Shown here in pieces: positions 1 to 59,135 of a stretch of DNA of 64,000 nucleotides. The position numbers and the translations under genes were made by a program. The notes below the pieces were generated by a model. It was not told the origin of the DNA and ran no database searches. It worked only from the letters and a program-made list of their open reading frames with translations. Source of the DNA: a phage; the NCBI GenBank assembly GCA_016390365.1, contig GCA_016390365.1_3043.1, one strand, 5' to 3'. How positions within the stretch are numbered: position 1 is the stretch's first letter; each line of letters opens with the position of its first letter.

Positions 1-939
1 ATGTACAATATTAAATGCCTGACCAAAAACGAACAAGCTGAAATTGTTAAACTGTATTCAAGCGGTAATTACACCCAGCAGGAATTGGCTGATTGGCAAG
101 GTGTATCGGTTGACACAATCCGTCGTGTTTTGAAAAATGCTGAAGAAGCTAAACGCTCTAAAGTTACTATTAGCGGTGATATTACAGTTAAAGTTAATAG
201 CGATGTAGCTATTGCTCCAGTTGCTAAATCTGATATTATTTGGAATGCTTCTAAAAAATTCATTTCAATTACTGTTGACGGTGTAACTTATAACGCAACT
301 CCTAATACTCATTCAAACTTCCAGGAAATTCTTAATCTGCTTGTAGCAGATAAGCTGGAAGAAGCTGCACAAAAAATTAATGTTCGTCGCGCTGTTGAAA
401 AATATATTTCCGGCGATGTTCGAATTGAAGGTGGAAGCTTGTTCTATCAAAATATTGAATTGCGATCTGGTTTGGTTGATCGTATTCTCGACTCGATGGA
501 AAAAGGTGAAAACTTTGAATTTTATTTTCCGTTCTTGGAAAATCTGCTGGAAAACCCAAGCCAAAAAGCGGTATCTCGACTCTTTGATTTCTTGGTAGCA
601 AATGATATTGAAATTACAGAAGATGGCTACTTCTATGCTTGGAAAGTAGTTCGCAGCAATTACTTTGACTGTCACTCAAACACCTTTGATAACAGTCCGG
701 GTAAAGTAGTTAAAATGCCACGTACTCGTGTGAATGACGATGATACACAAACTTGTTCTCGTGGTCTGCATGTGTGTTCTAAATCTTATATTCGTCACTT
801 TGGCAGTTCAACTAGCCGAGTTGTAAAAGTTAAGGTTCATCCTCGCGATGTAGTATCAATTCCGATTGATTACAACGACGCTAAAATGCGTACCTGCCAA
901 TACGAAGTAGTTGAAGACGTTACTGAACAATTTAAATAA
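1..939 (+). CDS. rIIB: rIIB protein (rapid-lysis, membrane-associated)
   Basis: 312-aa ORF starting at window position 1; sequence (MYNIKCLTKNEQAEIVKLY...) matches T4 rIIB from memory. Confidence 0.93.
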   Translation: MYNIKCLTKNEQAEIVKLYSSGNYTQQELADWQGVSVDTIRRVLKNAEEAKRSKVTISGDITVKVNSDVAIAPVAKSDIIWNASKKFISITVDGVTYNATPNTHSNFQEILNLLVADKLEEAAQKINVRRAVEKYISGDVRIEGGSLFYQNIELRSGLVDRILDSMEKGENFEFYFPFLENLLENPSQKAVSRLFDFLVANDIEITEDGYFYAWKVVRSNYFDCHSNTFDNSPGKVVKMPRTRVNDDDTQTCSRGLHVCSKSYIRHFGSSTSRVVKVKVHPRDVVSIPIDYNDAKMRTCQYEVVEDVTEQFK

Positions 940-971
940 GGGCTTCGGCCCTTATCACATTAAGGAAAATT

Positions 972-1824: not shown

Positions 1825-1854
1825 GTTTACATACCACAAGGACCGTGGTACTAT
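1825..1854 (+). promoter_or_regulatory. T4 early-type promoter
   Basis: -35 GTTTAC at 1825, 18-nt spacer, -10 TACTAT at 1849. Confidence 0.55.
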
Positions 1855-1891
1855 ACAACTATCAACTACTGATACGGATTTGGAGAATAAA

Positions 1892-5458: not shown

Positions 5459-5481
5459 TTTAAAATTTTTTTCACAAAACG

Positions 5482-5511
5482 GTTTACAACCAAAGCATAC
5501 TGTGGTACTAT
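5482..5511 (+). promoter_or_regulatory. T4 early-type promoter upstream of motA
   Basis: GTTTAC at 5482 and TACTAT at 5506; A/T-rich UP-like tract upstream. Confidence 0.6.
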
Positions 5512-5552
5512 ACAACTATCAACTACTGATACAGAATTACGGAGATTAGAAA

Positions 5553-14577: not shown

Positions 14578-17500
14578 TTATTCAACCCATTCAAATTTAA
14601 CAGTTTTATTCACTGGGTCAGGAATAATGCGAACATTACCAATTCGCAAGAAATCGCGAATAGTAAGATTACCTATTATTCCATTATCAGATGGGATCGC
14701 TCCTATATCTGAAGGTTGAGGAGGGTTACCTCCGTCAAATACCTGAACAAAACTTGACCAAGAGTTTTTGGTTTTCTGCCATGTACGTGTCCAGCGAGTG
14801 GTACGTGCTTCTGGGGTCGTTGGATAAGTAATCCAATCTTGGTAAAGTGAATCAAGTGTGTTACCAAACTGAGTCAATGTACCAGGAGATTTAACTTCTT
14901 CGCCACGTTCTAAGTATGGAAGCCCAGTCACTTCATTAGTTTTTTCAACCATTTTAAAATAACCCGGGAACTGGTTATAAGTGGCTGAATCATTAATATC
15001 GATTGACCAGAATCCTACAGTATCAGATGTCGGCGCACGGGTATATAAATCAGATGTTTTAGTGCCCTGAGAACGAATTCTCGAGTTAACAGTTAAACCA
15101 CCTGAATTTATAGTAGCACCTTTAGCAATGATCAAGCTTTCACCAATTGTGACCTGCCCAGATTGATTATTAATGGACAATGGACGTAATCCATTAAATC
15201 CACCAGTCTGATCACCCGATGCAGTAAGCATAAAATTCGTTACTGATCCATCATTGCGAACAATGAAACCATAATTTCCGTTAATAGCACGGAAAGCATT
15301 TGCGCTTCGAGAAATAATTTCACCAGTTGCAGTGACTGAATTACCAAATGTTGCTACACCATTTGCATTCAATGTTCCTGAAGCATTAACATTTATCGGT
15401 GTTACTGTACCGTTGATATTAAATGTTATATTTCCAGCTTTATTACGCTGAGAATAAAAATGACTAGACGTTTCATCACTAACTTCAAATACGGTAGAAC
15501 GTGTTGTGTCTGATTCCCCGCTAAATTGATTTCCCCACACTCTGACTGTCATCGTTTGAGCTGGGTTTGTTCCAGTTTGAGGTCCTTTCTCAAAAATCAG
15601 ACGAGTTGCCGTTCCAGTATTAGAAATAGTTAATGTACTATTTGCTGAAACTGATCCACCGAATGTAGCAGTACTAGATGATACAAGAGGGGCACTCAGA
15701 TTCGTTTGTTGGGTTAAGGTTAGTGAACCATTAACTGTTTGTGCAATGTCCCTACGAATGAACTGGAGCGAATCTAGACCATCTAATAAATTACTATCTA
15801 CAGCTTTTGCTTTTAATGGCAAATAATTTGCTAATACGCGATTTAATTCATATGGTGATACTGCATAACCATTTTTCTCATATGATTCTAATGGCTGTGT
15901 TGAACCTACCGTATCATTACCAACGAATGTAATTGAACCAGATGAAGTTTTAACAAAACCTCTTATTGCAGTAGTAGCTGCCCAAGTAGGTTCACTCTGC
16001 ACAATCCATTTTAAATTTTTTGGAGATACAGCAGTATTTGCTGACGTTCCAGCTACAGTTTCAGACCGAGTTGCAACTTTAATAACGCCTTCCTGTGCTT
16101 CAGTAGATTTAGTACCTAAAAGCTTTTTAGGAGTTATTAGAACATTATCCAATGTTCCTGCAGCAGCTTCAACTTGTGTAGCTACACGAAGTGTACCACG
16201 CTGTGTCTCATTTGCTTCAAGAATATTAAGGGTATAATGGTCCCAGAGAGTTCCTGATTCAACTAATCCAGATAGAGCAACAACAGAAGTACGATCAGTA
16301 CTATTAAATCTGGTTTTAATTTTTAATGGTGTAGAGATACGAGTATCGTCGACGCCTGCGTCGAATTCAACTTGCGTAGCAATTTCAGCTATACCACTTA
16401 AACTTTCAGTTGCTCTACGGTCATTTAAAGTTTTAGGAGTGACTGCGCGAGTATAATCAGTTCCTGTATTAACTTCGCTTTGCGTAGCAATTTCAATTAA
16501 ACCAATTCTTCCATCAGTTGATGTCTTTTTATGTAACGTTTCTGGTGTTACAACCGCATTTGCCCATCCTTCTTGGCTTTGTCCAGCAATTACTTCACTT
16601 TCAACTGCTAAAATTACTGCGCCTTGTTGCGTTGGAGTAGCTTTATACTGATCCAAAGCTTTAGGTGAAACAACTAAATTATTAGTGTTTTTATTATAAA
16701 CATTTGTACCATTTAATTCACGACTAGAAGCTGGAGTAGCTCCTGCAGTAGATACAAAAGTTACAATACCCGATAATGTTTCAGAACCTTGACGAGCTTG
16801 AAGCTTTTTAGGAGTGATGATTGTAGTATCATCGATACCTGTATTAGTTTCCTGCTGCGTAGCAATTTCAGCAACACCTCTGCGAGTTTCTGTAGCAGTT
16901 CTTTCATTCAGCTTTTTAGGAGTGATGATAAGGTCATCTGCAAAAGAGAATGTAGTGTTCTGATTTACTTGAGCAGTAGTTGCTATTCTTGCAATACCTC
17001 TGCGAGTTTCTGTAGCAGTACGATTAGCTAACGTTTCTGGAGTAATTGCTAATTCTTTTTGTGGAGAATTTTCTAAATCAGCATTTGCTTGAGCTTGCGT
17101 AGCTAAAGCAATTACGCCTAATCTTGCTCTAGTAGAAGCATTTAAAGAGTCTACTCTTTCTACAGTTGGAACGTTTTGCTGTACAACCCAGTATTTTCCA
17201 TCAGAATCTTCTATATAAGCAAGTTGTAAAACTGGAACATAATTAGTTTCACCATTAAAAACTAATTCTTGAACTGTTACCCATTCAGCTTCAGGCGGAT
17301 ATTCTGAACGTTTTGGGAATTGCAGCAATTGAACTGAAGAAGCAATTTTATCTTCACCGGCAGCTTTGATTTTAACTGTTTGTCCTTTTCTCATGTAATT
17401 CATGGAAATTTTAACAGTATCACCAACAGAAATATCAGTCGGAAGCTGAAGCTCAATTGTTTGAGTTGTTCCATTATTCGCACCAAATACCATAACTTCT

Positions 17501-21770: not shown

Positions 21771-21791
21771 TCAAAATTTTTTCACAAAATG

Positions 21792-21821
21792 GTTTACATC
21801 CCTGTTCTTCTATGGTACTAT
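21792..21821 (+). promoter_or_regulatory. T4 early-type promoter
   Basis: GTTTAC at 21792 and TACTAT at 21816. Confidence 0.55.
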
Positions 21822-21865
21822 ACAACTATCGGCAATACTGCTGACGATTAAAGAGGAAAACAATA

Positions 21866-22140: not shown

Positions 22141-22506
22141 ATGTATATTGGCAAAAAGTATGAGCTTGTTCCAAGACTTATTGATACATTTATTAATTAT
22201 CGCCCACGTTCTAATTCATCGATAGTTAAAATTATTCAAGAAAATGGTGGATGGTTTGAAGTTAAAGAAGCTTTCTTTGTTGATGGATTTAGAGTAATAA
22301 AACACATTGAATGCGCAAATGGAAAGCATTTTTACTTTAACGTTTGTGAAGAAGAGTTTTATTGTTTCCGCGAATATAAAGAACCGACTTCTGAAGAGGA
22401 TGAAGTCAAAGACAAGGTTTCTGGCGTAACAAAAATTCACTGCATTGTTGACGAAAACAATGTAGATGAAATCATTGAACTTTTGCGAAAAACTTTCAAA
22501 AAGTAG
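22141..22506 (+). CDS. hypothetical protein
   Basis: 121-aa ORF with RBS GAGGAAAACG. Confidence 0.5.
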   Translation: MYIGKKYELVPRLIDTFINYRPRSNSSIVKIIQENGGWFEVKEAFFVDGFRVIKHIECANGKHFYFNVCEEEFYCFREYKEPTSEEDEVKDKVSGVTKIHCIVDENNVDEIIELLRKTFKK

Positions 22507-22535
22507 TTTACAAAAGGGTAGTAGTGTGATACTAT
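22506..22535 (+). promoter_or_regulatory. T4 early-type promoter
   Basis: GTTTAC at 22506 and TACTAT at 22530. Confidence 0.55.
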
Positions 22536-22644
22536 TACCCTATCAAAACTAATGGAGAAAAGAAAATGTTCGCACCTTATATTATGGCAGCAGTTATGTT
22601 GGTCTGTTTATATCTTTTGATTAAAGCTTGCTAAGGAGAATAAA

Positions 22645-32011: not shown

Positions 32012-33599
<1,588 letters not shown>

Positions 33600-33602
33600 G
33601 CT

Positions 33603-33633
33603 GTTTACAAGTCCCTCGTGTTGTGTTACAGTA
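33603..33633 (+). promoter_or_regulatory. early-type promoter upstream of alc
   Basis: GTTTAC at 33603; part of a repeated promoter-leader element. Confidence 0.45.
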
Positions 33634-33657
33634 GTCTTACTGACATAACATGAGGAC
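33603..33657 (+). repeat. promoter-leader repeat, copy 1
   Basis: GTTTACAAGTCCCTCGTGTTGTGTTA.AGTA.TCTTACTGACATAACATGAGGA shared with 46533..46587, 2 mismatches. Confidence 0.8.
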
Positions 33658-33660
33658 TTT

Positions 33661-34167
33661 ATGATGGATTTGCAGCTTATTACTACTGAGATGGTCGTTG
33701 AAGCATACGGTGATACTACAGATGGGATTTCTGTATTCAAAGGAAATCGTCGAGTTGGATATATCACCGATCTTAAGAAAGATTTAGCTAAGCAAGTCAA
33801 GCGGAAAACGACCATTAAAGAATATCGAAATCGTCGTCTTGAGCAAGCTCGTGATATGCTTCCTGATGCGGTTGAGGAGATGAAAGTCTTTTTAGAAAAT
33901 CAGCTTGCGAAATATGATTGTGATGTGTTCATTAATCAGACTCAACCTAATGTTCATATTAACAACTGTAAATGCTATATCATCGTTAATCCTTTAACGG
34001 GAAAACATCGTCTTGGAATTAGTAATCCAAATCGTAGCGCATCGGATATGGCAGAAGATGTTGAGGCATGCTTTAAAATTTCTAAATCTCCGGCTGAACA
34101 TCATATTTTAATTAACGGTCTTTCTCAAGACGATATTATAGAGGTTATTAAAACTTTATGCAATTAA
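33661..34167 (+). CDS. alc: Alc (blocks host transcription on cytosine DNA)
   Basis: 168-aa ORF matching T4 Alc in length and sequence. Confidence 0.9.
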   Translation: MMDLQLITTEMVVEAYGDTTDGISVFKGNRRVGYITDLKKDLAKQVKRKTTIKEYRNRRLEQARDMLPDAVEEMKVFLENQLAKYDCDVFINQTQPNVHINNCKCYIIVNPLTGKHRLGISNPNRSASDMAEDVEACFKISKSPAEHHILINGLSQDDIIEVIKTLCN

Positions 34168-36923: not shown

Positions 36924-36926
36924 TAG

Positions 36927-36966
36927 TTTACTTTTTGGTAGAGTTGTGATATTATAGCTCTACCAA
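36927..36966 (+). promoter_or_regulatory. early-type promoter with dyad symmetry around -10
   Basis: GTTTAC at 36927; inverted repeat TTGGTAGAG (36935) / CTCTACCAA (36958) flanks the -10 region. Confidence 0.45.
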
Positions 36967-36985
36967 AACAAATGAGGAAAACAAA

Positions 36986-40071: not shown

Positions 40072-40094
40072 TTTTCCAAAGATTGCACAAAGTT

Positions 40095-40124
40095 GTTTAC
40101 AGTACGGTTCCTTTGTGATAGTAT
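40095..40124 (+). promoter_or_regulatory. T4 early-type promoter
   Basis: GTTTAC at 40095 with -10-like TAGTAT about 18 nt downstream. Confidence 0.45.
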
Positions 40125-40151
40125 TATCTTACACAAACAAAGGAGAATAAA

Positions 40152-40545: not shown

Positions 40546-40833
40546 ATGTTTATGACTACTTATTTTGATACCCGCAAAAATTTCTGTGAAGTTGTTTTCT
40601 CAAAGGCACCTAAAGACCTTCCTACACATTTGCAACCTACTAGCGAATCGATTAAAAACTACGTTGATGTGGTTTGTCCTTTAGAGTTCCGTACTGTAAA
40701 TGGGCGTGATACTTTAGCTATCACTAAACTTAATCGTGAAATTGACATTGACCCTTCAATTGCGCGCGAAATTAATATCTCTGATATTGGTGGCGGTAAT
40801 GTTAAATCACATGGTTTTCAGATGAGGTTTTAA
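40546..40833 (+). CDS. hypothetical protein
   Basis: 95 aa from ATG 40546 with RBS GAGGAAAATATT (track ORF starts at TTG 40507). Confidence 0.45.
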   Translation: MFMTTYFDTRKNFCEVVFSKAPKDLPTHLQPTSESIKNYVDVVCPLEFRTVNGRDTLAITKLNREIDIDPSIAREINISDIGGGNVKSHGFQMRF

Positions 40834-44246: not shown

Positions 44247-44431
44247 AAGCTTACTTAGAAACAGTTGTCGTGGCTCAAAAAGAAGGTGGAGATGTTTCTA
44301 CTTCTGTATCACAAGTCGTTCTCGAATTTGTAGATGCATATGCTTATAATAAATTTACAGAAACATTTGATGCCTATGAAAAAGGTCCAAAGTTTGAAAT
44401 ATACCGTACTCTCTTACCACTAGATTATTAA
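44243..44431 (+). CDS. hypothetical protein
   Basis: 62-aa ORF followed by a CUUCGG hairpin terminator. Confidence 0.45.
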   Translation: MKAYLETVVVAQKEGGDVSTSVSQVVLEFVDAYAYNKFTETFDAYEKGPKFEIYRTLLPLDY

Positions 44432-44452
44432 AGGCCTTCGGGCCTTTAATTT
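44431..44452 (+). terminator. terminator-like CUUCGG hairpin before alt late promoter
   Basis: AAGGCCTTCGGGCCTT followed by TAATTTT. Confidence 0.55.
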
Positions 44453-44460
44453 TATAAATA
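44453..44460 (+). promoter_or_regulatory. late promoter (TATAAATA) upstream of alt
   Basis: Exact TATAAATA immediately after a terminator hairpin, 20 nt before RBS GAGAGG. Confidence 0.65.
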
Positions 44461-44646
44461 GAATAAACACTAGAGAGGATATGATGGAACTTATTTGACG
44501 AAGATACTACTCTTCCAATTACAAACTTAAATCCAAAGAAGAAAATACCGCAAATTTTTTCAGTTCATGTTGATGATGCAATTGAACAACCAGGCTTTCG
44601 TTTATGTACCTATACATCTGGAGGTGATACTAATCGCGATTTAAAA

Positions 44647-46533
44647 ATGGGCGATAAAATGATGCATATTGTTCCTTTTACATTAACTGCTAAAGGTTCA
44701 ATTGCTAAATTAAAAGGTCTTGGTCCAAGCCCAATTAATTATATCAATTCAGTTTTTACTGTTGCGATGCAAACAATGAAGCAGTATAAAATTGACGCGT
44801 GCTTATTCCGTGTACTAAAGAGTAAAACAAATGGCGCAGCTCGTCAAATGCAAGTTATTGCTGACCGTTTAGTACGTACTAAAGGAGCAGGTCGATATGT
44901 TCTTTTAAAGGAAATCTGGGATTACGATAAAAAGTACGCATATATTATGGTTTACCGTAAAAATGCCAATTTAGAAGACATTCCAGGTGTACCTCCTATT
45001 TCAACTGAGTTATTCACAAAAGTTGAATCAAAGGTCGGTGATGTTTATGTAGACGTTAAAACAGGTAATGCTGTTCCTAAAGCTGTCGCTGTTGCTGCTT
45101 CTATTGCTTTAGAAAATGATAAGCGCACGGACCAAGCTGTTATTCAGAAAACTAAAATCAGTCGTCGATTAGCAGCACAAGCTCAATATTCTACTGTCGA
45201 TGCTTCACTTCAGGGTGATAGCTTCGCTGCTAAGAAATATCAGGAATTTGAATCTAAAGTTCCGGTATATAAAGCAGAAGGACCAATGAACTCTGGCGTT
45301 ATTCAGATTGGTTCAAACTTCAGCAAAGGAGCTATTGGTGGTATGAGAAGTGCTTTTCGTTTTAAATCTAACGATTATGAACTAGAAAGTTTCCGAAATC
45401 ATATTGCATTAGCCCATGCACGTTTACGTGATCCATCTATCAAGTTGCAGAGCGATATAACATATCAAGGTTCTCAAGAATATTTAAAGAATAAAGAATT
45501 CTTTGATTATAAAACTGATAAAATTTTAAGCGATCTTGCTGACATTAATATTTCTAATAGCTTTGATGTTATTAAGAAAATTATCAATGATTTAGTTAAA
45601 GGTTCTAAAGCTACACCAGATGAAAAGACAGCTATTATTCAATTTGTCATGAATGGCATTTATAAATTGATTAATGAATCTGCCGCCCAGGCATATGAAT
45701 ACGCAAGCACCGAAGTAGCTCCAAAAGGACTGACTCAGGCTGAATCTGATGTAATTGAAGATTATTGTGCAGATTCATATGTTGAAATGAACTCGTTTCT
45801 TTTGGGTAAACCGGATTCTACCCGCGAAGAATATATGGAACGAGCTATTAAGCACATCGAGACGTTGGATTCTGCATTCGCTAAAGGTTCAGTTCTTCCT
45901 CCAGGAACTACACTTTACCGTGGACAAGAAGTTACCTTTAAAACTTTGCGTCATAACATTGAAAACAAAATGTTCTATTTCAAGAACTTCGTATCTACAT
46001 CGCTTAAACCAAATATCTTCGGCGAGCATGGTAAAAACTATATGGCTCTAGATGATTCTGGCGCAGTATTTTCTGGTGAAGGAGAAGGTTCTGTTGATGC
46101 AGAAGATTTGATGCATATGGGTAGTCATTCTACATATGCTAATGAAGATGCTGAAACTAGCGTGGGTATGGTAATTAAAGGAGCTGAGCGAATCAAAGTT
46201 ATCGTTCCAGGTCATTTATCAGGATTTCCATCAGAAGCTGAAGTTATTCTACCGCGTGGAATTTTACTGAAGATTAATAAAGTAAGTACGTACTTTATGA
46301 AAGAAACTGCTTATAACAAGTATCTAATCGAAGGTACAATCGTTCCTCCTTCTGAACAATTAGAAGAATCAGTATATGATGGCGACCATCTAATGGAAAC
46401 TGGTGAAGTTCGTCCAATGGCTGGATTTAATCAATTCCTTGTAGAAGAATCAAAAGAAGAGGAAAACGAAGTTTCTCAAATCTTAGCTTCTTTGGTTAAC
46501 ATCAACGGAATGTCTAAAAAGTTCAAAATGTAG
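44647..46533 (+). CDS. alt: ADP-ribosyltransferase Alt (5' end disrupted; coordinates from first in-frame ATG)
   Basis: 628-aa ORF with ART-like motifs (YRG, STS, EVILPRG); frame is open upstream to 44485 (..FDEDTTLPITNL..) but RBS-linked ATG at 44481/44484 is in another frame. Confidence 0.75.
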   Translation: MGDKMMHIVPFTLTAKGSIAKLKGLGPSPINYINSVFTVAMQTMKQYKIDACLFRVLKSKTNGAARQMQVIADRLVRTKGAGRYVLLKEIWDYDKKYAYIMVYRKNANLEDIPGVPPISTELFTKVESKVGDVYVDVKTGNAVPKAVAVAASIALENDKRTDQAVIQKTKISRRLAAQAQYSTVDASLQGDSFAAKKYQEFESKVPVYKAEGPMNSGVIQIGSNFSKGAIGGMRSAFRFKSNDYELESFRNHIALAHARLRDPSIKLQSDITYQGSQEYLKNKEFFDYKTDKILSDLADINISNSFDVIKKIINDLVKGSKATPDEKTAIIQFVMNGIYKLINESAAQAYEYASTEVAPKGLTQAESDVIEDYCADSYVEMNSFLLGKPDSTREEYMERAIKHIETLDSAFAKGSVLPPGTTLYRGQEVTFKTLRHNIENKMFYFKNFVSTSLKPNIFGEHGKNYMALDDSGAVFSGEGEGSVDAEDLMHMGSHSTYANEDAETSVGMVIKGAERIKVIVPGHLSGFPSEAEVILPRGILLKINKVSTYFMKETAYNKYLIEGTIVPPSEQLEESVYDGDHLMETGEVRPMAGFNQFLVEESKEEENEVSQILASLVNINGMSKKFKM

Positions 46534-46563
46534 TTTACAAGTCCCTCGTGTTGTGTTATAGTA
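46533..46563 (+). promoter_or_regulatory. early-type promoter (second copy of alc-type element)
   Basis: GTTTAC at 46533; about 55 nt nearly identical to 33603..33657. Confidence 0.45.
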
Positions 46564-46587
46564 TTCTTACTGACATAACATGAGGAA
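46533..46587 (+). repeat. promoter-leader repeat, copy 2
   Basis: Near-identical to 33603..33657. Confidence 0.8.
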
Positions 46588-46593
46588 CACAAA

Positions 46594-46884
46594 ATGAAAT
46601 CTTCTTTACGCTTTTTAGGTCAAGAACTTGTAGTTGAAGGCGTTATTCCTGCTGATAATGCTTTTAATGAAGCAGTTTACGATGAATTTATCAAAATTTT
46701 TGGAACAGATAAAAAGTTCGGAATTTTTCCTTCTGAAAATTTTTCAAAGCCAGAACAGACTGAAAGTATTTTTCAGGGTGTAGTAACAGGTAAATTTGAG
46801 TCAGAAGCTCCGGTAAAAATTGAAGTTTATATTGAAGACAGTTTAGTTGCTTCAGTTTCTGCTTTCATTTCATTCCGTAAATAA
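46594..46884 (+). CDS. hypothetical protein
   Basis: 96-aa ORF; promoter-leader element upstream nearly identical to that of alc. Confidence 0.5.
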   Translation: MKSSLRFLGQELVVEGVIPADNAFNEAVYDEFIKIFGTDKKFGIFPSENFSKPEQTESIFQGVVTGKFESEAPVKIEVYIEDSLVASVSAFISFRK

Positions 46885-46908
46885 AAATATGGGGACCTTT
46901 CGGTCCCC
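46881..46908 (-). terminator. rho-independent terminator after gene 54
   Basis: Hairpin GGGGACC(GAAA)GGTCCCC on minus strand followed by T-run (plus-strand AAAAATAT). Confidence 0.6.
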
Positions 46909-46912
46909 ATTG

Positions 46913-57690: not shown

Positions 57691-59097
57691 ATGGCTTTTA
57701 CAGTTGATATAACTCCTAAAACATCTACTGGAGTTATAGATCAGACTCAGCAGTTTACTGCTACACCCAGTGGTCAAACTGGAGATGGACCTATTACATA
57801 TGCTTGGACTGTAGACGACGCTCCACAGGAAGAAACGTCAGCAACTTTTAGTTATGTACTAAAAGGACCTGCCGGTCAAAAGACTATTAAAGTAGTTGCA
57901 ACCAATCAAGTTGCAGAATCTGAACCTGAAACAGCTGAAATTAGTACAACTATCACAGTTCAAAATAAGACACAAACAACTACTTTGGCAGTAACTCCTG
58001 GTAGCCCTGATGCTGGAGTGATTGGAACTCCAATTGAATTTACCGCTGCCTTAGCTTCACAGCCATCAGGTGCAAACGCTACGTATCAATGGTACGTTGA
58101 CGGTTCTCCTGTGGGCGAAGCAACTAGCACTACATTCAATTACACTCCTGACGCAAGCGGAGTTAAAACAATTAAGTGCGTAGCTCAAGTAACCGCGACA
58201 GATTATGATACAAAGGAAGTTACTTCCAATGAAGTGTCACTGACTGTTAATAAAAAGACGCAGACAACTACCTTGGCAGTAACTCCTGATAGTCCTCCAG
58301 CTGGAGTAATTGGAACCCCAGTTCAATTTACTGCTGCCTTGGTTTCTCAACCTGATGGAGCGTCTGCTACATATAAATGGTATGTAGATGATTCTCAAAT
58401 TGGTGGAGAAACTAACTCTACATTTAACTATACTCCAACTACAAGTGGAGTAAAAAGAATTAAATGCGTAGCCCAAGTAACGGCTGAAAATTATAATGAA
58501 AAGGAAGTTACTTCTAATGAAGTATCATTAACAGTTAATAAGAAGACAATGAATCCACAGGTTACATTGACTCCTCCTTCTATTAACGTTCAGCAAGATG
58601 CTTCGGCTACATTTACTGCTAATGTTACGGATGCTCCAGAAGAAGCACAAATCGAATATTCATGGAAGAAAGATTCTTCTCCTGTAGAAGAATCAACTAA
58701 TGTATACACGGTTGATACATCATCTATTGGAAGTCAAACTATTGAAGTTACTGCAACCGACTATGATAGTAAAACAGTTAAAGCAACAGGCCAAGTTCAG
58801 GTAACTGATAAAGTTGCTCCGGAACCAGAAGGTGAATTGCCTTATGTTCATCCTCTTCCACATCGCACTTCAGCTTATATCTGGTGCGGTTGGTGGGTTA
58901 TGGATGAAATCCAAAAAATGACCGAAGAAGGTAAAGATTGGAAAACTGGAGATCCAGATAGTAAATACTACCTGCATCGTTACACTCTTCAGAAGATGAT
59001 GAAAGACTATCCAGAAGTTGATGTTCAAGAATCACGCAATGGATACATCATTCATAAAACTGCTTTAGAAACTGGTATCATCTATACCTATCCATAA
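57691..59097 (+). CDS. hoc: highly immunogenic outer capsid protein Hoc (expanded)
   Basis: 468-aa ORF of tandem Ig-like domains plus C-terminal capsid-binding region; about 92 aa longer than T4 Hoc. Confidence 0.85.
   Translation: MAFTVDITPKTSTGVIDQTQQFTATPSGQTGDGPITYAWTVDDAPQEETSATFSYVLKGPAGQKTIKVVATNQVAESEPETAEISTTITVQNKTQTTTLAVTPGSPDAGVIGTPIEFTAALASQPSGANATYQWYVDGSPVGEATSTTFNYTPDASGVKTIKCVAQVTATDYDTKEVTSNEVSLTVNKKTQTTTLAVTPDSPPAGVIGTPVQFTAALVSQPDGASATYKWYVDDSQIGGETNSTFNYTPTTSGVKRIKCVAQVTAENYNEKEVTSNEVSLTVNKKTMNPQVTLTPPSINVQQDASATFTANVTDAPEEAQIEYSWKKDSSPVEESTNVYTVDTSSIGSQTIEVTATDYDSKTVKATGQVQVTDKVAPEPEGELPYVHPLPHRTSAYIWCGWWVMDEIQKMTEEGKDWKTGDPDSKYYLHRYTLQKMMKDYPEVDVQESRNGYIIHKTALETGIIYTYP
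57967..58542 (+). repeat. hoc: tandem duplication of a 288-nt Ig-like domain unit inside hoc
   Basis: Units 57967..58254 and 58255..58542 encode near-identical 96-aa segments (KTQTTTLAVTP...SNEVSLTVNKK); nucleotide identity estimated by eye at about 80 percent. Confidence 0.85.
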
Positions 59098-59107
59098 TCA
59101 TAATCAT

Positions 59108-59135
59108 AAGGGGCTTCGGCCCCTTTCTTCATTTT
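59108..59135 (+). terminator. rho-independent terminator after hoc (CUUCGG hairpin)
   Basis: AAGGGGCTTCGGCCCCTT followed by TCTTCATTTT. Confidence 0.65.

Follow-up and report, generated by a model that had tools for sequence, protein, structure and literature searches.

Two copies of a promoter-leader cassette

The window analyzed here is a 64,000-nt stretch of phage DNA (contig GCA_016390365.1_3043.1 of NCBI GenBank assembly GCA_016390365.1), and it carries a 54-nt promoter-leader cassette in two near-identical copies, one upstream of alc, the inhibitor of host transcription, and one upstream of alt.-3. The 4-kb surroundings of the repeat are 98% identical to many Tequatrovirus (T4/T6-like) genomes, and by this sequence identity the phage is a Tequatrovirus. 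The copies lie at 33603–33656 and 46533–46586 and agree at 52 of 54 positions, the differences being 33629 (C/T, third base of the -10 hexamer) and 33634 (G/T, just past the -10). An original prediction, made from the letters alone, had described a 55-nt element with two mismatches; its two copies are confirmed, but the 55th base is unlike (33657 C vs. 46587 A), so that the 55-nt span has three mismatches and the count of two holds for 54 nt. The search for further copies that it proposed gave exactly two in the window, by pattern search and by repeat finder, and none of 100 shuffled sequences gave any match to the element. A bare 54-mer megablast under-reports copies, as it relies on a 28-nt exact word and the C/T site splits the element, and was excluded from the counts.

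Each cassette consists, in order, of a -35 region (GTTTACA), a 17-nt spacer (AGTCCCTCGTGTTGTGT), a TG-extended -10, about 10 nt, and ACATAACATGAGGA with the Shine-Dalgarno (SD) sequence GAGGA, with the start codon 4–7 nt further on. Both copies satisfy the pattern of the T4-type sigma70 early promoter (Pe), GTTTACA-N17-TACAGT or TATAGT with TG upstream of the -10, and both lie directly 5' of an SD-bearing gene on the early-transcribed strand, which is the + strand of the window and the strand of the rnlA, alc, alt, and alt.-3 features located below. The alc-side site is annotated as a promoter in one Tequatrovirus record (H131). Judged by sequence, each copy is a sigma70 early promoter of T4 type fused to the short leader of the next gene. 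The identity is sharply limited, on the left by the G of GTTTACA and on the right by GAGGA, with unrelated flanking sequence, and the suggestion that it goes beyond what a shared -35 and -10 need was borne out; promoter and leader are both shared. A coding origin of the repeat was rejected: it is bounded by the upstream stop codons, ends before the start codons, and shares no open reading frame (ORF) on either strand.

The 61 nt that separate rnlA from alc contain copy 1. The rnlA stop codon TAA (33597–33599) ends 3 nt before the -35 region (33603–33609), which is of T4 early-promoter type. The promoter spacer is at the same time the 5' arm of an inverted repeat (GTCCCTCGTGTTGTGT, 33611–33626); it holds the anti-SD sequence TCC(C)TC as well as the TG of the extended -10 (33624–33625). 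The -10 hexamer TACAGT (33627–33632) falls within the loop, sigma70 geometry predicts transcription to start at an A 7 nt past the -10 (33639), and the 3' arm (ACATAACATGAGGAC, 33643–33657) includes the SD (33652–33656). The alc gene (33661–34167) has ATG codons at 33661 and 33664, the second of which is the T4 annotation.

Copy 2 begins on the last base of the stop codon of the alt-like ADP-ribosyltransferase gene: the G of that TAG (46531–46533) is the first base of GTTTACA (46533–46539). Its 5' arm, again the promoter spacer (46541–46556), is identical to that of copy 1, and is followed by the -10 hexamer TATAGT (46557–46562), a predicted transcription start at an A (46569), and the 3' arm ACATAACATGAGGA (46573–46586) with the SD at 46582–46586. 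The gene that follows, alt.-3 (46594–46884, 96 aa), is the sole T4 gene found to acquire mutations that escape the CmdTAC defense; a paralogy of alt.-3 with a 65-aa ORF at 40833 was considered and dropped as too weak (15-residue match, E = 0.04). A bidirectional terminator-like hairpin (46889–46910) between alt.-3 and the convergent late gene 54 closes the unit.

T4 itself has both copies, one mismatch apart, at the same positions upstream of alc and alt.-3, and the predicted starts correspond to about 136,300 and 123,060 in T4. Among the 528 pairs formed by 33 T-even early promoters, the alc/alt.-3 pair is the most alike (52/54, against a mean of 26.7 and a standard deviation of 5.0), and there are pairs at 49/54 and 47/54 as well. 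Promoter-cassette families form a continuum with the alc/alt.-3 pair at its far end. Such families are seen in the window at 1813–1881, 5470–5538, 21780–21848, 2318–2381, 22483–22546, and 40072–40135; their similarity spans the A-rich upstream sequence and continues into the leader (83% at most, over 69 nt), and the leader ACAACTATCAACTAC is common to many of their early-promoter cassettes. Repeats of other kinds are also present in the window: a 288-nt unit in two tandem copies at 57955–58530 (76% identical), and a 68-nt unit occurring four times at 16070–17046, 63–74% identical to the reference copy and spaced 120–483 nt apart.

Predicted folding of read-through and own-promoter transcripts

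The dyad formed by GTCCCTCGTGTTGTGT and ACATAACATGAGGAC is predicted to fold at -25.7 kcal/mol in copy 1 and -23.7 kcal/mol in copy 2 (z = -5.3 and -6.2), and none of 200 shuffled sequences folded as well as the two dyads. These energies bear out the inverted repeat with GAGGA in its 3' arm that had been read from the letters. However, the 5' arm occupies positions -28 to -13 relative to the predicted transcription start, that is, it lies upstream of it, so the mRNA made from the cassette's own promoter should be unable to form the hairpin. RNA taken from the predicted start, without the 5' arm, folds no better than shuffled sequences (z = +1.5 and +0.6). Opening the region from the SD to +12 is predicted to cost 5.6 kcal/mol for alc and 4.7 kcal/mol for alt.-3 in own-promoter RNA, and 25 and 18 kcal/mol, respectively, in RNA entering from upstream.

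With the start where it is predicted, the hairpin is a feature that only read-through RNA from rnlA or alt would carry. The original prediction, that the leader could fold back to occlude its own SD, to be checked by folding of both leaders, therefore holds in part: both leaders fold when the 5' arm is included and occlusion is possible in read-through RNA, but the 5' arm is the promoter spacer, and the leader that starts downstream of it is predicted to be unstructured. Judged by promoter geometry, the observation that the prediction named as its own refutation, a start downstream of the 5' arm, thus applies to the transcript of the cassette promoter. In a search of 33300–33900, which covers copy 1 only, the Rfam 15 covariance models identified no family, the one hit being a chance snoRNA match (E = 0.89).

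Conservation of the stem at the alc locus

To the window we compared rnlA–alc intergenic regions from seven INPHARED genomes outside its own lineage, six of them assigned to a genus, and from 41 IMG/VR contigs. The IMG/VR homologues were gathered by an alignment-based search, as a single-protein Alc query gave only six close relatives. The layout is constant, with the rnlA stop codon, GTTTACA, a spacer of 16–17 nt (18 nt in one), TAnnnT, a short leader, the SD, and alc. Spacer and leader pair at -15 kcal/mol or below in 27 of 34 distinct rnlA–alc regions, and in 24 of these 27 hairpin-bearing orthologues the SD is paired inside the 3' arm. The arm sequences themselves are lineage-specific: 5' and 3' arms read TCTCCATTTGGTTGTGT and ACACTAACCAAATGGAGA in Karamvirus, TCCTCATCAG and CTGATGAGGA in Jiaodavirus, TCCTCATTTCGTT and AACGAAATGAGGA in Winklervirus, CCTCTCGTTTTTG and CAAAAACGAGAGG in L085, TCCCATTTTGTT and AACAAAATGGGG in L089, and GTCC(C)TCGTGTTGTGT and ACATAACATGAGGAC in T4.

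In an alignment-free test across 13 lineages, the spacer paired with its own leader at a mean of -20.6 kcal/mol, compared with -10.8 kcal/mol for cross-lineage chimeras, and none of 100,000 permutations reached the native mean. This test also covers the T4 and Dhakavirus stems, which fall in another register in the MAFFT alignment. Pairs were counted on an alignment of 17 sequences whose register was set by hand, with N padding in the loop; there, 9 of 13 stem pairs have changed on both sides. Paired cells make up 90%, compared with 71% after shuffling (reached in 0 of 500) and 32–50% when the partner strand is slid, and the covariation score is 0.52, compared with 0.19 shuffled and at most 0.15 slid. 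Within five Tequatrovirus genomes, all differences between the two copies fall in the loop or change a U-A pair to U.G. By these comparisons the stem is maintained across at least eight T4-like lineages through compensatory changes, and the pattern of substitutions clearly argues that the hairpin at the alc locus is under selection.

Three IMG/VR contigs of about 170 kb (L073, L074, and L103) have a different solution at the same site: their rnlA–alc gap lacks the GTTTACA promoter and contains a G+C-rich stem-loop, AAGGGGTGTACAAGCCCCTT, followed by TATACATAAT.

Spacer-leader pairing among T-even early promoters

Spacer-leader pairing is also found beyond alc and alt.-3. We assembled 34 canonical early promoters from the window and T4 positions 1–76 kb, with T4 137–169 kb represented by the homologous part of the window. 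A spacer and its own leader form a duplex at a mean of -11.45 kcal/mol, compared with -7.04 kcal/mol (standard deviation 0.43) for chimeric combinations, and none of 20,000 permutations reached the native mean. The energies are bimodal, with 13 of the 34 promoters forming hairpins at -15 kcal/mol or below and 15 at -11 kcal/mol or below; about 40% of T-even early promoters are wrapped in sense-strand hairpins with the spacer as 5' arm. Of the 13 strong hairpins, seven have the SD within the 3' arm (alc, alt.-3, window 2341, and T4 dexA, ipII, vs.3, and nrdC.9). In the other six (window 36926 and T4 20612, 57990, 7215, 73939, and 65799) the 3' arm begins directly after the -10 and ends 3–5 nt or more before the SD, and two paralogous T4 cassettes of this kind differ by two compensatory changes (AGTTGACAAGATT/AATCTTGTCAACT vs. 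AGCTGACAAGACT/AGTCTTGTCGGTT). A dyad around the -10 is thus a recurrent property of T-even early promoters, and coverage of the SD is one of its two forms.

Individual examples in the window include the early promoter at 2341–2400, where the spacer CTGTTCTTCCGTGG pairs with CTACGGAGGAACAG and covers the SD at -23 kcal/mol; the one at 36926–36985 (TTTTGGTAGAG/CTCTACCAAAA), where the 3' arm starts 2 nt past the -10 and the SD is uncovered; and the one at 40095–40150 (TCCTTTGT/ACAAAGGA), where the SD is covered by a weaker hairpin. A second recurrent spacer type has an inverted repeat lying wholly within the spacer, CCACAAGGA(T/C)(G/C)GTGG and variants such as ACACATGGATGTGT. It is common to unrelated early promoters and several genera, and was seen at window 1825–1860, at T4 2458 and 50973 (L002 and L005), and upstream of alt.-3 in other genera (L019 and L021).

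Origin of the alt.-3 copy

The similarity of the two copies appears to have a recent history. In Dhakavirus, Mosigvirus, Marfavirus, and Karamvirus, the early promoter of alt.-3 is a different one, unlike the alc cassette of the same phage, and its spacer contains an internal palindrome, CCACAAGGATGTGG or similar. Aligned with these orthologues, the Tequatrovirus alt.-3 site is a mosaic of a core that matches alc and flanks (..TCAAAATGTAGTTTACAA on the left, ATGAAATCT.. on the right) that match the alt.-3 orthologues. Since the anti-SD design is found in the alc cassettes of most genera, alc is the likely donor; the Tequatrovirus lineage seems to have acquired the alt.-3 copy recently, by copying or conversion from the alc cassette. 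The exchange would have had as its endpoints GTTTACA and ..ACATGAGGA, which both sites share. The C/T variant in the -10 hexamer is found at both loci, the alc and alt.-3 copies reading T and T in T4, C and C in ACG-C40, C and T in the window, T and T in one IMG/VR contig, and C and T in another. Its distribution hints at continuing exchange. T4 recombines readily at very short homologies (PMC9391042), which fits an exchange of cassettes.

It had also been suggested that the element may serve as a recombination substrate between distant loci. As history this agrees with the mosaic alt.-3 site; as a present function it is unsupported, because the two copies are direct repeats and crossing over between them would remove 12.9 kb, genes 30 and 31 included. 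We thus regard recombination as part of the history of the element and not as its function.

In T4 and ACG-C40, the stretch separating alt from copy 2 contains alt.-1/alt.-2, which are what is left of a second alt copy; these are absent from the window, as they are from T6 (T4 L001 3066–3451 vs. window 46500–46533; ACG-C40 L105 14326–14532). The last ~20 nt before copy 2, CTAAAAAGTTCAAAATGTAG, are shared, so the indel polymorphism ends just upstream of the cassette.

Proposed promoter-gated translation and its alternatives

The reading that we favor, with moderate confidence and on the strength of the predicted folds, is promoter-gated translation of alc and alt.-3 inside a PeSL-like cassette. 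The promoter spacer would double as an anti-SD strand. In RNA arriving from upstream, the spacer would pair with the leader and bury the SD in a hairpin of 15–16 bp whose loop contains the -10 hexamer, whereas RNA from the cassette's own promoter would begin inside that loop, lack the 5' arm, and leave the ribosome-binding site open. Translation of both genes would then be set by the promoter of origin, with much protein made from RNA of the immediate-early promoter and little from read-through RNA, and efficient synthesis of Alc and Alt.-3 would be confined to the period in which early promoters fire. Read-through RNA left untranslated may in turn become a target of Rho-dependent termination. 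The sequence comparison itself establishes the anatomy, the predicted thermodynamics, the compensatory evolution, the strand asymmetry, and the lack of a terminator; where transcription starts, whether and how much read-through RNA is made, and how translation responds are the parts of this scheme that we infer.

Read-through into both cassettes is plausible from the arrangement of the surrounding genes. Candidate sources are middle-mode RNA passing through nrdB-denA-rnlA and late RNA passing through alt. In T4, the mapped middle promoters PnrdB, PI-TevIII, and PnrdA lie upstream of denA-rnlA-alc (PMC2988021, Table 1). A terminator scan gave no terminator-like site upstream of or at either copy. 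Upstream of alt itself there is a terminator-like GC-rich stem-loop (family D5) together with the late-promoter motif TATAAATA (44453–44460); because TATAAATA precedes alt, late alt RNA should run into alt.-3. All of these arguments for read-through are indirect, and we found no transcript maps.

Several further features were observed in the alt region and elsewhere. Stem-loops that are G+C-rich and have TTCG as their loop (for example GGGCTTCGGCCC), positioned like intergenic terminators, form a family at window 931–958, 1162–1189, 44424–44451, and 59102–59129. At 44453–44470, by TATAAATA, a short repeat is one 5-bp unit shorter than in T4 (TATAAATAGAATAAAC vs. TATAAATAGAATAGAATAAAC). Within alt, at 44482–44499 (compare T4 L001 from 5503 downward), 11 bp (TTATTACAGAA) lying between short direct repeats are missing relative to T4, so that the frame from the T4 start meets a TGA (44497–44499) after five codons. 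The longest ORF begins again at 44647 and encodes 628 aa, compared with 682 aa in T4. The shortening of alt could reflect a pseudogene, an internal restart, or a sequencing error.

A number of points weigh against promoter-gated translation. The start sites are placed by geometry alone, and we found no published T4 start-site data set in the literature; the main text of a T4 omics paper does not mention alc or alt.-3. The hairpin energies are in silico predictions at 37 °C. Seven alc lineages, Mosigvirus included, have no such hairpin, and three have one whose 3' arm does not cover the SD. Among the T-even early promoters, the six strong hairpins that stop short of the SD mean that SD burial cannot be the sole function of the wider class. 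In both copies the upstream stop codon lies 8–12 nt before the 5' arm, and a ribosome terminating there could melt the base of the stem, in which case the block may be leaky or may be a coupling device.

On one hand, the hairpins could be attenuators of the type proposed for PeSL cassettes, halting or attenuating incoming transcription and insulating transcription units, with burial of the SD incidental. In RB49 and phi1, the cassette stem-loops lie between the -35 and -10 or over the -10, and one of them lowered the expression of lacZ placed behind it to an extent similar to that of rrnB T1 (Arbiol et al. 2010, PMC2839356); the hairpins that leave the SD uncovered in T4 and in some alc lineages would also fit. 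However, the sequences that follow the hairpins (CUUUAUGAUG in copy 1 and ACACAAAAUG in the alt.-3 copy) have no U tract, and with the negative terminator scan at both copies an intrinsic (Rho-independent) terminator was rejected. The stems are A/U-rich, in contrast to the polyG/polyC stems of RB49. A plain terminator moreover gives no reason for the SD to lie in the 3' arm in the great majority of hairpin-bearing alc orthologues, or for that arm, as read from the fold output, to end at or 1–2 nt past the 3' edge of the SD. We consider attenuation alone unlikely; the possible targeting of read-through RNA by Rho would reconcile promoter-gated translation with an attenuator role.

Somewhat less likely again is translational coupling, in which alc or alt.-3 would stay silent on read-through RNA unless the ribosome ending rnlA or alt melts the base of the stem. 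The close spacing of the upstream stop codon speaks for it, as does the arrangement in other genera, where the stop overlaps or abuts the -35 and the anti-SD follows directly, and the pairs between anti-SD and SD form the stem base, which a terminating ribosome would reach first. Yet the tight spacing is possibly mere genome compaction, and hairpins that stop short of the SD are left unexplained. Coupling is more a refinement of promoter-gated translation than an exclusive alternative to it.

The dyad could instead act as DNA, as an operator for a dimeric regulator, a cruciform aiding promoter melting, or a dedicated recombination site. Its center coincides with the -10, the mechanism by which T4 early promoters are shut off is still unexplained (PMC2988021), and PeSLs have been proposed as recombination substrates. 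A signal in duplex DNA should, however, be strand-symmetric, and the arms vary by promoter and lineage, which leaves no common operator. A transition in a Watson-Crick pair yields, with equal chance, either a G.U pair, tolerated in the sense RNA, or an A.C pair, which is a G.U pair in the antisense RNA. A strand-symmetric choice of hairpins, requiring -15 kcal/mol or below on one strand or the other, gave 25 in all; in these we counted 24 G.U pairs in the sense strand and three in the antisense strand. The sense strand was the more stable in 20 of the 25 (Wilcoxon p = 2.6e-4), and seven hairpins passed the threshold on the sense strand only and none on the antisense strand only. This asymmetry in sequence points to a structure in the sense transcript and against a cruciform or protein operator; the operator and cruciform readings were rejected on these grounds, and a DNA-level element of any of the three kinds is very improbable.

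Equally improbable is a functionless dyad, in which the copies would be alike through recent copying and the inverted repeat would be due to chance: the mosaic alt.-3 site with its alc core, the different alt.-3 promoter of other genera, the 52–54/54 identity of within-genome copies in five genomes, and the C/T variant at both loci all agree with recent copying, but copying accounts for the identity and not for the dyad, which folds far better than shuffled sequences and has undergone compensatory changes at alc across genera. Recent copying stands only as an explanation for the near-identity of the copies, and the absence of function is contradicted by the covariation seen in the aligned sequences.

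Significance

If the gate works as proposed, T4-type phages would have a second signal, acting at the RNA level, in the "free" 17-nt spacer of their strongest promoters, and this signal would decide the translation of the next gene by the origin of its RNA. Such a gate would be relevant to an old problem, the shut-off of early protein synthesis, and to the reuse of T4 early promoters and the re-engineering of T4 genomes as modular parts. Promoter cassettes may also move between loci, as alt.-3 appears to carry a promoter-leader cassette borrowed from alc, the likely donor.

A broader proposal, that promoter-gated translation is a genome-wide design rule of T-even early genes, is one that we put forward only tentatively and think somewhat doubtful. 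If true, the hairpins would insulate early cassettes from upstream RNA, translationally and perhaps also transcriptionally through Rho polarity, and would help to explain why early protein synthesis stops while read-through transcription of the same genes goes on. In that case the promoter spacer, usually treated as free sequence, would be under RNA-level selection.

Comparison with known systems

T4 early promoters have been described as having GTTTAC at -36 to -31, a 17-nt spacer, a TGn-extended -10, and an A-rich UP-like region, with further conserved positions beyond the host consensus that are explained by RNA polymerase contacts (Hinton 2010, PMC2988021; Nolan et al. 2006, PMC1524935). 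Both copies share all of these features, the extra conserved positions included. Neither of these reviews mentions complementarity of the spacer to its own leader.

PeSL cassettes have been described from T4-type phages (Arbiol et al. 2010, PMC2839356; Comeau et al. 2014, PMC4122927). Like these, the alc and alt.-3 cassettes have an A/T-rich upstream region, a strong sigma70-type early promoter, a stem-loop, and then the SD and start of the next gene, and they recur in the genome, conserved for tens of bases and well past the hexamers. The position of the stem-loop, in RB49 and phi1 mostly between the -35 and -10 or overlapping the -10, is also similar. The mosaic alt.-3 site is in keeping with the proposal that PeSLs serve as substrates for recombination and for the shuffling of modules. 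PeSL cassettes lie beside indels or replacements, and copy 2 likewise forms the core of the mosaic site and has an indel (alt.-1/alt.-2) ~20 nt upstream. There are differences as well. The T4/PST description puts the stem-loop just upstream of the promoter, and all PeSL descriptions treat the SD as a separate block, whereas in alc and alt.-3 the SD makes up the 3' arm and the spacer the 5' arm. Published accounts read PeSL stem-loops as terminators or attenuators; the alc and alt.-3 hairpins have no U tract. The pair studied here flanks 12.9 kb including essential genes and not an ORFan. As promoters, both copies are of the ordinary T4 early kind, and in most respects the cassette agrees with the PeSL description.

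The closest parallel in mechanism is found in T4 e (lysozyme), soc, 49, and I-TevI and in Aeh1 mobE, which have hairpins that sequester the ribosome-binding site and contain an embedded promoter (reviewed in PMC3014915). For T4 e, soc, 49, and I-TevI, translation according to promoter choice has been shown experimentally (PMC3014915). In these genes, as predicted here and accompanied here by covariation, the SD and/or AUG is helical on RNA from the distal promoter, and the proximal promoter lies within the sequence of the 5' strand, so that proximal RNA (here, RNA from the predicted start) lacks that strand. The embedded promoters differ: those of e, soc, 49, and I-TevI are late promoters (gp55, TATAAATA) that restrict the protein to late times, while the element studied here contains no late-promoter motif TATAAATA and embeds a promoter that is, by its sequence, an immediate-early sigma70 one, so that the gate would favor early expression and silence later read-through. 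The review PMC3014915 includes no early-promoter case of such a hairpin. The element is a variant of the e/soc/49/I-TevI type and not a strict member. Set against the published descriptions consulted, the differences are the spacer as 5' arm, the SD as 3' arm, the lack of a terminator tail, and the early character of the embedded promoter; if the proposed gate is true, it would be an early-gene mirror of the late switch of lysozyme, soc, and gene 49.

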